Shown here: positions 2,100 to 60,971 of the stretch, one piece after another | Numbering within the stretch: position 1 is the first letter of the stretch | How the letters are laid out: every line of letters starts with the position of its first letter | DNA from: Bacteroidaceae bacterium | GTDB taxonomy: Bacteria > Bacillota > Clostridia > Lachnospirales > Lachnospiraceae | Assembly: GCA_963597615.1 (NCBI GenBank) | Contig: CAVBQS010000040.1 | Location: 7,366-71,365, forward strand | Direction: 5' to 3' | DNA length: 64,000 bases | Position numbers and translations under genes: made by a program | Notes under the pieces: model-generated | Database searches by the model: none | The model's input: the letters and a program-made list of their open reading frames with translations, nothing else | Told to the model about the DNA's origin: nothing

Positions 2100-4124
2100 A
2101 TGGCGAGACAGTTGAAATACAAAGGCTACCTTCATGGAGGAGATTATAATCCGGAGCAATGGCTTGACCGGCCGGATATTCTTAAAAAAGACATTGAATA
2201 TTTCAAAAAAGCCCATATTAATACGGTATCTGTAGGTATTTTTTCCTGGGCAGTTCTAGAACCGGAAGAGGGGAAATACAATTTGGACTGGCTGGAAGAG
2301 ATTATCAATAATCTTTACAAAGAGGGAATTTATACGATCCTTGCAACTCCGTCAGGGGCAAGACCCAAATGGATGGCAGACAAATATGAGGAAGTCCTTC
2401 GTATGGATCCGGACAGAACCAGAAGGTTCTTTGGAGGGAGACATAATCACTGCTTTACTTCTCCGGTATACCGAGAAAAAGTTCATGCCATTGATAAGAA
2501 GTTGGCAGAAAGATTTGGAAAACATCCGGCGGTGCTCTTATGGCACATTTCCAATGAGTTTAGTGGGGAGTGTCACTGTCCTCTGTGTCAGGCAAAGTTT
2601 AGAGAATGGCTTAAGGAAAAATATGGCACCATTGAAAACCTAAATAAGAGCTGGTGTACCACTTTCTGGAGTCATATTTATAATGGCTTTGACCAGATTG
2701 AAAGCCCATCTGCTAAGGGGGAAAATGAGCTTCATGCATTAAAACTTGACTGGAAACGGTTTGTTACAGATCAAACCATTGACTTTATCAAAAACGAAGT
2801 GGATGCAATCCGTGAAGGGGGATCTGAACTTCCGGTAACAGCCAATCTTATGTATGACTTTGATGGCTTGGATTATAAGAAATTCAAGGATGTTCTTGAT
2901 ATTGTATCCTGGGACAACTACCCGGGATGGCACAAAAAAGAAGAATATATTACAGCAGTTGACGCAGCAATGCAGCATGATTTGATGCGCAGCATTAAGA
3001 AGACGCCATTTCTTCTCATGGAATCCTGCCCTTCGGCAACCAACTGGAAACCGATTAACAAATTGAAAAAACCGGGAATGCTTTTAGCAAGCTCTCTCCA
3101 GGCAGTTGCCCACGGCTCTGACAGTGTATTATATTTCCAGCTTCGTCAAAGCCAGGGAGCTTCTGAAAAATTCCACGGAGCAGTCATTGACCATTATGGC
3201 AAGGATGACACCCGGGTTTTCCGTGAAGTCACAGAGGTTGGCCAGGTCTTAGAGCAGATCCAGGAGACAGTTGGAAGTGATATGAAATCTCAGGCAGCGG
3301 TCCTCTATGATCGGGAAAATGACTGGGCTATTGCTGATGCCCAGGGACCAAGAAATGAGGACATGCATTACCGGGAAAATGTACAGAAAAACTACCGTGC
3401 ATTAAGAGAGCAGGGCCTGAATGTGGACATTATTGGAATGGGGCACGACCTTACAGATTATAAGATTTTGGCAGCTCCTATGGCTTATATGCTTAAAGAC
3501 GGATATGAAGAGAAACTGCGTTCCTACGTAGAAAAGGGCGGAACCCTGGTACTTTCCTACTGGTCCGGCCTGGTAGATGGCACAGATAAGTGCTTCTTAG
3601 GAGGAAGTCCCTACGGCCTTATGGATGTAACAGGCATTCGCAGCACAGAGATCGATGCCTTGTTTGATTGGGAAGAAAATCATGGAATTCCAGAAATTGG
3701 AAATCATCTTGGAATCAGCAACGTATATGCCTGCAAAAATCTTTGCGAGCTGGTGGAAGTATCTGATGCGGAAGTCTTGATGCACTACGGAGAAGACTTT
3801 TATCAGGGTTACCCAGTGTTGACCCATAAGGTATCTGGCAAAGGTCATGTATATTATGTATGTGCAGATATGGAATTAGGCTTTTATCAGGATTTCTATG
3901 GCAGAGTGGCAAAAGAAGCATCTCTTAAGTCCCCGGTAGACTTTATTCCGGAAGGGGTAGCTGTGACTGTAAGAGAAAATGAAGAGGCGGAGTATCTATT
4001 TATTCAAAATTATGCTAGAAAACCACAGACTGTAGTAGTACCGGCAGAATATGACCTGCTCTATGGAAGCCAAAGCCAAGTCATGGCGCCACTTCAGACA
4101 AGGATTTTGAAGAAAAAGAAATAA
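2100..4124 (+). CDS. beta-galactosidase, glycoside hydrolase family 42
   Basis: 674 aa. N-terminal YLHGGDYNPEQW, WHISNE acid/base block and Cys cluster NHC...CHCPLC typical of the GH42 zinc site. AGGAGG RBS and no signal peptide. Confidence 0.9.
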   Translation: MARQLKYKGYLHGGDYNPEQWLDRPDILKKDIEYFKKAHINTVSVGIFSWAVLEPEEGKYNLDWLEEIINNLYKEGIYTILATPSGARPKWMADKYEEVLRMDPDRTRRFFGGRHNHCFTSPVYREKVHAIDKKLAERFGKHPAVLLWHISNEFSGECHCPLCQAKFREWLKEKYGTIENLNKSWCTTFWSHIYNGFDQIESPSAKGENELHALKLDWKRFVTDQTIDFIKNEVDAIREGGSELPVTANLMYDFDGLDYKKFKDVLDIVSWDNYPGWHKKEEYITAVDAAMQHDLMRSIKKTPFLLMESCPSATNWKPINKLKKPGMLLASSLQAVAHGSDSVLYFQLRQSQGASEKFHGAVIDHYGKDDTRVFREVTEVGQVLEQIQETVGSDMKSQAAVLYDRENDWAIADAQGPRNEDMHYRENVQKNYRALREQGLNVDIIGMGHDLTDYKILAAPMAYMLKDGYEEKLRSYVEKGGTLVLSYWSGLVDGTDKCFLGGSPYGLMDVTGIRSTEIDALFDWEENHGIPEIGNHLGISNVYACKNLCELVEVSDAEVLMHYGEDFYQGYPVLTHKVSGKGHVYYVCADMELGFYQDFYGRVAKEASLKSPVDFIPEGVAVTVRENEEAEYLFIQNYARKPQTVVVPAEYDLLYGSQSQVMAPLQTRILKKKK

Positions 4125-27952: not shown

Positions 27953-28250
27953 TAAGGCAAATTTAACACGTTAGTACACTAAATCGAAGATCAAGAGAAG
28001 TAGACCAAAGGATCTGTTCAAAGAGAGTTGCCGGTGGTGAGAAGGCGATAGCATGAGGCTTGGTTGAATGGACTTGAGAGAGTGGCTTGAAATCTTAAAT
28101 AATAGAGAGTAGATGTCAACGGGAGCCCTATCCGTTATCAACCGGGTATGCATGATTGTGCATAACAGAGTGGTCTTAATAAGACAATTTGGGTGGTACC
28201 GCAGAAGATTATGAAGCTTTTGTCCCTTACTTGGGGCAGAAGCTTTTTTT
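27953..28250 (+). promoter_or_regulatory. T-box leader RNA with tryptophan (UGG) specifier
   Basis: AG-bulge AGAGAG (28022-28027). Specifier context GAA-UGG-A with UGG at 28069-28071. T-box sequence AATTTGGGTGGTACCGCAG (28186-28204). Terminator AAGCTTTTGTCCC-N6-GGGGCAGAAGCTT plus T7 (28214-28250), directly upstream of trpE. Confidence 0.85.
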
Positions 28251-45600: not shown

Positions 45601-45638
45601 AAAATTCTCCGGCGAATATGTTTGCCGGAGAATTTTTA
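45601..45638 (+). terminator. rho-independent terminator after proC
   Basis: AAAATTCTCCGGC-N10-GCCGGAGAATTTT plus a T-run. Confidence 0.85.
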
Positions 45639-45733
45639 TGCATCCTGGTATTAAAAAAAACAATCAAACAGACCCTTTACGGAACCTAGCTTTTCCGCTA
45701 AAATGAACTGTATTGTGACCTATGAATTTCCCG

Positions 45734-45875
45734 GGTGTCAGCGAAAGTCTAGTAGAGTACATTGGATTGCACATAATAACCAAAGGAAAAGCAGACCCTT
45801 GGAGCATGTCGAGTCTGCTTTTGCTTTCGGTTATTGTGGGCAATCCTCGCGAACTATACTACACTTTCGTGCACC
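45734..45875. repeat. long imperfect palindrome 'element A' (~142 nt)
   Basis: The left arm GGTGTCAGCGAAAGTCTAGTAGAGTACATTGGATTGCACATAATAACCAAAGGAAAAGCAGAC pairs with the right arm GTCTGCTTTTGCTTTCGGTTATTGTGGGCAATCCTCGCGAACTATACTACACTTTCGTGCACC around a ~17-nt loop. It shares the GGATT...AATAACCAAA / TTGCTTT(C)GGTTATTGTG...AATCC core with the element at 60790-60971. Confidence 0.7.
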
Positions 45876-49868: not shown

Positions 49869-49958
49869 ATAATAATGGAGCTTGCACCACCATCGAAAAT
49901 ATTGCTGGATTGGATAAAATAATCAAAGCGTCCCCTATTTATACAATCCATGAAGATC

Positions 49959-60782: not shown

Positions 60783-60789
60783 AAGTATC

Positions 60790-60971
60790 GCAAAATCCGG
60801 GGTGATTCATGGATTCGACTCAATAACCAAAACATCAAAGACGCGCTTGCACTCCCTCCGCCCGTAGCGCTACTAAGGGGCCAAAATACGGCCCCTAAGG
60901 ACCGACGGGCTCCAAGGGTCTTTGTTGCTTTGGTTATTGTGTTGAATCCACGTAAGTTGTCGGTGTTTTGT
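60790..60971. repeat. long imperfect palindrome 'element B' (~180 nt; core 60811-60949)
   Basis: GGATTCGACTCAATAACCAAAACATCAAAGAC (60811-60842) pairs with GTCTTTGTTGCTTTGGTTATTGTGTTGAATCC (60918-60949). Within this, CAATAACCAAAACATCAAAGAC pairs with GTCTTTGTTGCTTTGGTTATTG at 20 of 22 positions. The GC-rich interior holds nested hairpins (GCCCGT/ACGGGC and AGGGGCC-N7-GGCCCCT). Confidence 0.7.

Follow-up and report, generated by a model that had tools for sequence, protein, structure and literature searches.

In the stretch of DNA of 64,000 nucleotides that was analysed here (the window), the intergenic region between proC and ppiB contains an element of 142 nt, which we call element A. It folds into one long interrupted hairpin with an MFE of -67.1 kcal/mol, to be compared with a mean of -33.9 for dinucleotide shuffles (n=200), which corresponds to z = -9.74, and none of the 200 shuffled sequences folded as well. 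The first-pass annotation, which was made from the sequence alone, had described a long interrupted hairpin with small internal loops, without a U-tract and separate from the terminator of proC. The fold confirms the hairpin, and the loops, the missing U-tract and the distinct terminator could all be read from the sequence as described. The simple terminator scan passed over the proC terminator because of its loop length. The coordinates of the features are collected in Table 1.

Each of the five species of the genus has the promoter-like site upstream of element A in conserved form, also the one species that carries no copy of the element, and the ribosome-binding site of ppiB lies 17 nt downstream of A. 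Since A is placed between these two signals, it is probably situated inside the 5' UTR of ppiB, as far as can be judged from the arrangement of the DNA. It would then probably be transcribed as a long 5'-UTR hairpin, and the effects on the ppiB mRNA may be neutral or modest. A related element in the window, element B, also lies in a probable 5' leader, and the distance from A and B to their ribosome-binding sites is 17-19 nt.

Table 1. Positions of element A, element B and neighbouring features in the window
Feature	Position	Strand	Basis
proC intrinsic terminator (AAAATTCTCCGGC...GCCGGAGAATTTTT)	45601..45638	+	read from sequence
Promoter-like site TTTACG-17-TAAAAT, upstream of A	45676..45704	+	consensus scan, alignment of orthologous loci
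Element A, very likely a core-deleted hairpin MITE copy	45734..45875	- vs family model	RNAfold, nhmmer, cmsearch, G002 orthologue
Element A, outer arm (GGTGTCAGCGAAAGTC...)	45734..45763	.	pairs with 45847-45875; fold and alignment of genome copies
Element A, inner arm GGATTGCACATAATAACCAAAGGAAAAGCAGAC	45764..45796	.	pairs with 45813-45846; fold, cmsearch
Element A, residual core	45797..45812	-	comparison with G002 full-length orthologue and copy C16, cmsearch alignment
Element A, inner arm GTCTGCTTTTGCTTTCGGTTATTGTGGGCAATCC	45813..45846	.	partner of 45764-45796; fold
Element A, outer arm (...CACTTTCGTGCACC)	45847..45875	.	partner of 45734-45763; fold
Possible third copy, short remnant of an arm (GGATTGGATAAAATAATCAAAGC)	49890..49929	-	inner-arm pattern match, 1 mismatch; weak nhmmer match, E = 0.18
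Element B, full-length family copy (arms and intact core)	60786..60970	+	nhmmer, cmsearch, fold
Element B, conserved asymmetric core	60843..60917	+	copy alignments; cross-genus alignment

Copies in the same genome and at the same loci in sister species

A search of the whole genome had been suggested by the first-pass annotation, and further copies do exist. BLAST with element A against the window's own genome (G000, 2.5 Mb in 60 contigs) gave 22 partial matches, and a profile search found 26 non-overlapping loci, of which 14 are near full length (score >90). The nhmmer profile was built from eight copies and the covariance model from 12 copies of G000. All the copies that were inspected in this genome (24 loci) are intergenic, and among those that lie between co-directional genes the orientation relative to the genes is sense in seven cases and antisense in six. 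Five copies or remnants, in mixed orientations, lie outside the window in the gaps of one type IV pilus/competence-like operon with PilB/PilT-like ATPases and prepilin-like genes (C11:100374-111730).

An intact copy is a single long interrupted foldback, about 190-210 nt in G000 and 190-245 bp across the family, in which self-complementary arms surround an asymmetric core of ~85 nt. The outer arms of the G000 copies carry the motif TTGCGAAAC / GTTTCGCAA, and the inner arms consist of GGATT-N6-AATAACCGAAAGCAACGAAGAC and its partner. The core contains a small 5' hairpin, a CGCAGCGGTACTAAGGGGCC...GGCCCCTAAGGACCGGCG hairpin that has conserved mismatches, and CTCCAAGG; as a pattern it can be written ACGCnnnCGCT ... 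CGCAGCGGTACTAA, a covarying hairpin, and TAAGGACCGGCG. The copies, from 142 to 245 nt long, have no coding capacity, as no ORF is conserved and the arm sequences are wholly different from copy to copy.

Element B is such a full-length copy (nhmmer E = 4.4e-50 at C40:68151-68335 of the genome). Its fold is stable on either strand (z = -7.3 on the plus strand and -8.2 on the minus strand), and its core shows the family order with CGTAGCGCTACTAAGGGGCC...GGCCCCTAAGGACCGACGGGC as the mismatched hairpin. Element A was found by the profile on the minus strand with E = 1.6e-7. That A is related to the element at 60.8 kb, as the first reading of the sequence had claimed, is confirmed by one and the same covariance model, which gives B 133 bits (60808-60952, plus strand) and A 48.6 bits (45761-45849) on the minus strand. 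On the plus strand A reaches 41.5 bits, and 60 positions of the model have no counterpart in it. What remains of the core in A corresponds, in reverse complement, to its last ~16 nt in the family (...CGACATGCTCCAAGG), and the other ~60 nt are deleted. It is this loss of 60 nt that has left arm facing arm and makes element A look like a near-perfect palindrome of 142 nt. The GCGAAAG of its left outer arm is the counterpart of the sub-terminal motif in the other G000 copies.

The earlier alignment of A and B, left arm with left arm, has on the other hand to be corrected. In reverse complement the loop of element A, GACCCTTGGAGCATGTCG, reads as the 3' end of the core, so A is inverted relative to B; the full-length orthologue of A in G002 also has its core in minus orientation. 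As the arms are near-palindromic they can be compared in either direction. A third copy may, on weak evidence from the arm sequence, have left a remnant at about 49.9 kb.

The loci of A and B were compared between five species of one genus, G000 to G004. In the proC-ppiB spacer, G002 has a full-length copy in minus orientation and G003 a copy with a core deletion that differs from the one in G000. In G001 only a possible remnant of ~24 nt is left, and in G004 the element is absent; the promoter-like site and the ribosome-binding site are intact in both. At locus B the element is present in G000, in G001 and in G002, with the core deleted in G002 so that this copy has the form of A, and it is absent from G003 and G004. 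The intergenic DNA at the two loci is too diverged within the genus to define the exact empty site, and no clean empty site was recovered. These comparisons show that the insertion at locus A is older than the split of at least three species (G000, G002 and G003), possibly of four if the G001 remnant is counted, and that the G000 copy later lost 60 nt of its core by an internal deletion. From the filling of the loci in sister species and the differing core deletions, it follows that the copies at A and B are old and vertically inherited, that they decay through independent internal deletions, and that the core is unprotected at individual loci. At the orthologue of locus B in G001 (L075, G001:C3:35750-36350), a second partial copy follows directly after the first as a local tandem duplication.

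A MITE that three species have kept at one site, with a conserved promoter-like site on one side of it and a ribosome-binding site on the other, could be thought to have been exapted, that is, to be maintained by the host as a 5'-UTR hairpin that stabilises or tunes the ppiB mRNA, e.g. as a stabiliser at the 5' end or as a site for RNase III. There is also one compensated arm difference between G000 and G002, GCAGAC/GTCTGC against GAAGAC/GTCTTC, which would fit a hairpin that is kept. The species comparison nevertheless makes this improbable. G001 is down to ~24 nt and G004 has nothing, and yet the promoter-like site and ribosome-binding site are unharmed in these species; the three retained copies differ from each other through large independent deletions, and retention over such a divergence is what would be expected of neutral intergenic DNA.

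Termini, target-site duplications and a candidate transposase

The signs of mobility are clearest in another genome, G021, which has ~116 copies. They are uniform and have sharp ends, GTTACTGTTCAC...GTGAACAGTAAC, and the terminal pattern was found 232 times, to be compared with 3 times for a reversed control pattern. At the ends of 16 copies, six have an 8-bp target-site duplication (TSD) that matches in at least 7 of 8 positions in exact register, where 0.37 would be expected from shuffled pairings, and the mean match is 4.06 against 2.23, and none of 5000 shuffles reached the observed value. Many of the copies in G021 are short TIR-to-TIR derivatives. At two of its loci (L104 and L107) there is a core-less form of ~90 nt with an identical deletion, and the copy at L107 has a perfect 8-bp TSD, ATCAGTAT. 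As the core-less form is dispersed, and in one case flanked by a perfect TSD, forms that consist of the hairpin only, like element A, can be mobilised. In G021, 20 termini that lack an obvious partner were considered as the possible ends of an autonomous element; each belongs to a truncated copy or to a short derivative with a deletion, and a transposase is enclosed by none of them.

In G000 no TSDs were found on element A or on the other copies, and no IS-type termini either, on A or elsewhere, with the exception of one arm of copy C16. The eroded ends and the missing TSDs are consistent with an old age of the copies in this genome. Since A is without a recognisable TSD or IS-type terminus of its own, its place in the family follows from its homology to copies elsewhere.

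Two observations on single loci can be added here. At L099 (G021:C1:524800-528000) a MITE breaks off behind its left arm. The DNA that comes next is unrelated and contains a promoter-like site as well as an ORF that starts with MRLGWTKTKYSTSFYVQKTVYVNGKNKSQVV, and it may be that another mobile element has inserted into the MITE. At L031 (G006:C7:37233-40388) the flanks of the copy at 1501-1656 share a direct repeat of ~17-20 nt (CCTATTTTTTATTGT...TCA), which is much longer than the 8-bp duplication of G021.

The MITE end was also found on larger elements. G023, which belongs to a different genus from the copy-rich genomes, has two elements of 2201 and 2207 bp bracketed by GTTACT(A/G)TTCAG, which agrees with the end of the MITE in 11 of 12 positions. 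An 8-bp TSD, CACATAAC, was found at one of these elements. Each of them contains one ORF of 536 aa that matches NF033517 (IS66 family transposase) with 183 bits, where the cutoff is 180, and PF03050 (DDE_Tnp_IS66) with E = 1e-22 and 81 bits. The IS66 zinc finger is absent from the protein and the accessory genes TnpA/TnpB are absent from the element, where the only other ORF is 102 aa long, coiled-coil-like and without a family match. The terminus of this IS, GTTACTGTTCAGCC, agrees in 12 of 14 positions with GTAACTGCTCAGCA of ISDge4 from Deinococcus geothermalis. According to a 2026 paper, ISDge4 is a member of the IS66 family (ISBst12 group) with a single ORF; it makes an 8-bp direct repeat, and its TIRs are GTAACTGCTCAGCA and GTGACTACTCAGCA [PMC12898284].

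Judged by these similarities, the best candidate for the mobilising partner would be a single-ORF IS66-family transposase of the ISBst12 type. The MITE has the 8-bp target duplication and the TIR type GT(T/A/G)ACTG(T/C)T(C/T)A(G/C) in common with the ISBst12 group, and the candidate partner likewise has a single ORF without TnpA/TnpB. There are also differences. The sequence shared between IS and MITE is limited to the ~12 nt of the terminus, with arms and core that are not derived from the IS, and the partner is absent from most of the host genomes, among them G000, whose copies have lost the terminus. Of the 41 genomes that were searched, only G023 has this transposase subtype intact. G021, with the most copies, has only an internally deleted relative of 777 bp with GTAACTGTTTAGGA ends, and in G000 no IS66-family genes were found. 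The draft MAG assemblies may have dropped IS copies.

Other transposases were considered as the partner and rejected. The canonical IS66 copies of G001, G002 and G021 (C26) end with GTAAGCG, which is not the end of the MITE. The IS6/IS26 family has a terminus, GGTTCTGTTGCAAA, that resembles the MITE end, and it makes 8-bp TSDs, but PF13610 was found in none of the three copy-rich genomes G021, G013 and G000. A separate point from the literature concerns ISGka4 of Geobacillus kaustophilus, for which a paper gives membership of the ISLre2 family and direct repeats of 9 bp [PMC8024623].

In the mechanism we propose, a DDE transposase would act in trans on the termini of the MITE and leave the 8-bp TSDs as its footprint. 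Since G000 has no matching transposase, the copy at locus A would now be unable to move.

The many host genomes without a partner transposase, together with the palindromic, intergenic and multi-copy nature of the elements, could also be taken as an indication that the family is a REP/REPIN-like repeat, spread by recombination or by a RAYT-type enzyme (IS200-like, HUH) and not by a DDE transposase. REPINs are, like this family, palindromic intergenic repeats with co-evolving arms, and they are associated with a single-copy RAYT gene; they have neither target-site duplications nor DDE-type TIRs. The Lachnospiraceae family differs from them in its 8-bp TSDs and defined TIRs, which are the footprint of a DDE and not of an HUH enzyme, and in its terminus, which matches an IS66-family IS. 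It is also far longer than REP units, and we regard such an origin as extremely unlikely.

Covariation, distribution and the nature of the family

Where the arms of A and B differ, the first-pass annotation had noticed that the partner arm differs as well, so that pairing is kept. This is borne out, and it is general: among the 12 G000 copies, 24 of 53 pairs have double changes, and among 40 copies from 11 genomes changes on both sides were seen in 47 of 52 pairs. In the latter set 94.1% of the cells form standard pairs, which can be compared with 64.1% in shuffles and 37-43% when the partners are slid. Covariation as strong as this is a reason to consider that the family could be one of structured non-coding RNAs, acting as cis-regulatory leaders or as small RNAs, in which selection on the RNA would keep the long helix and the branched core, with element A as a degenerate member. 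The core and its mismatches are moreover conserved across many genera while the arms drift, A and B lie close upstream of ribosome-binding sites in probable leaders, and, where 91% of the pairs are Watson-Crick, there is a modest excess of G·U over A·C in the forward orientation (60 against 28). This excess is weakly compatible with an RNA, although two columns contribute 20 of the G·U pairs and it was to the forward strand that the alignment had been fitted.

Covariation is, however, also expected of inverted-repeat DNA elements with homogenised arms, and does not discriminate between the two. The simplest reading is that of a DNA foldback with homogenised arms, or of a selective propagation of copies that are able to fold back. 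In the first case one of the arms may be restored from its partner, with the hairpin as the template for repair or synthesis; in the second it may be that only foldback-competent copies propagate. Several observations speak against an RNA. Both strands fold equally well, with a difference in MFE of -0.4 +/- 6.0 kcal/mol in G000 and +0.2 +/- 5.7 in G021, and the orientation relative to the genes is unbiased. TIRs and 8-bp TSDs are present, independent losses of the core at orthologous loci show no sign of constraint, and the core-less forms are themselves dispersed. Nor is the proximity to ribosome-binding sites a property of the family: an insertion ~20 nt upstream of them was considered as a family trait and rejected, as the distances in G021 range from 7 to 101 nt and are mostly 67-101.

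The first-pass annotation could not match the element to 6S, SRP, RNase P, tmRNA or a riboswitch consensus known to it, and a scan with Rfam 15 agrees, as at gathering threshold over the whole window nothing matched at A or B. With E values up to 10, nothing came up at the two loci but miRNA models, which generic hairpins match by chance, and RF01699 (Clostridiales-1) was not matched by either of them. The sole match at gathering level in the window is a T-box leader at 27978-28230 (RF00230, 109 bits).

Copy number varies in a way that is difficult to reconcile with a structured RNA. Family copies were found with the covariance model in 13 of 41 relatives; the counts in the five species of the genus are 24, 2, 26, 4 and 0, those in other genera range from 0 to 76+, and the overall range per genome is from 0 to >100. 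The family is present in 92 of 251 sampled Lachnospiraceae genera, about a third, but in none of 16 other families of the same order, and in none of ~194 genomes from other families of the class. That the bacterial family of the window is Lachnospiraceae was judged from the names attached to its nearest PpiB relatives. Taken together with the missing Rfam match, this makes a structured RNA unlikely.

The first-pass annotation had left the choice between a structured RNA and palindromic DNA of the MITE or REP-like type. We favour the MITE, and the RNA has no positive support beyond the covariation. The arguments are the variation in copy number, the TIRs with 8-bp TSDs, the terminus shared with an IS66-family IS, the unbiased orientation, the equal folding of both strands and the independent core deletions. 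What had been named as the alternative, an IS-derived MITE with target-site duplications, has essentially been found in the 8-bp TSDs of G021 and the IS66-type terminus. Element A is thus very likely one copy, by now decayed, of a hairpin-forming MITE, a non-autonomous DNA transposon with a wide distribution in Lachnospiraceae. As a member of that family it is a worn, immobile, core-deleted copy, an inert relic and a piece of ordinary selfish DNA.

Hairpin-forming MITEs and repeats are well known from other bacteria, e.g. Correia/NEMIS in Neisseria, ERIC/IRU in Enterobacteriaceae, and RUP and BOX in Streptococcus pneumoniae. These are gene-less, intergenic, multi-copy elements of 100-250 bp that form long hairpins, are often co-transcribed with their neighbours, vary in copy number between strains and frequently have variants with internal deletions. 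The Lachnospiraceae family resembles them in its size, in being gene-less, intergenic and multi-copy, in its hairpins, in the variation of its copy number and in the internal-deletion variants, and differs from them in lineage and sequence. A search of the literature for a named MITE of this kind from Lachnospiraceae or Clostridia found nothing relevant, and the family is apparently unnamed.

Hundreds of strongly covarying hairpins in the intergenic DNA of Lachnospiraceae come from this family, and they are easily mistaken for riboswitches, small RNAs or terminators. To recognise the copies as MITEs prevents false calls of RNA genes, in the window at A, at B and at the possible remnant at ~49.9 kb. 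In gut Clostridia the family can also serve as a marker for the activity of ISBst12/IS66-type transposons, and it offers a natural case of long inverted arms that remain complementary during the turnover of their sequence.

The conserved core

Element A itself matters little, and the only unusual feature of the family is its core. In the cross-genus alignment the sequence of the core and its mismatches are kept, whereas the sequence of the arms, and even that of the termini, has been replaced completely. This is the reverse of the textbook MITE pattern, and it is in this respect, an ~85-nt core that is kept while the paired arms and ends are rewritten, that it is unusual in comparison with Correia/NEMIS, ERIC/IRU, RUP and BOX. 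Its conservation extends over at least 90 genera of Lachnospiraceae. That the core is a fragment of the parent IS was considered and rejected, as nhmmer found no similarity between the two. It appears to be an uncatalogued module, different from RF01699.

The core is freely lost at orthologous loci, and the constraint on it therefore seems to act on propagation rather than on a function for the host. We tentatively hypothesize, as a possibility that we consider less likely than not, that the core is a functional module in itself, a structured RNA or a protein-binding DNA site, and that it either spreads with the MITEs as its vehicle or is required in cis if transposition of the ISBst12 type is to be efficient. 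If this is true, element A is a copy that has lost its functional part.

Some further occurrences of the family and its core were noted. Plasmid carriage was looked for and gave zero plasmid matches. In MT838426.1, a 5.3-kb contig of an uncultured Bacteriophage sp. from human faeces, 55 nt at 3205-3260 resemble the core of element B with 82% identity. An exact scan of genome contigs for the core pattern gave matches only on two contigs of one MAG, that of G002 (L053/L054: CAVAKZ010000039.1 and CAVAKZ010000022.1). This MAG, with 26 copies, is deposited as Parabacteroides distasonis; it has 83-89% nucleotide identity and synteny with the Lachnospiraceae genome of the window, and the label looks wrong. 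At L040 (G012:C9:11218-14363, ~530-1878), five to six copies form a head-to-tail tandem array with a period of ~233 bp, in which each unit consists of a 146-nt element and a repeated spacer of ~87 nt, unlike the dispersed single copies elsewhere.
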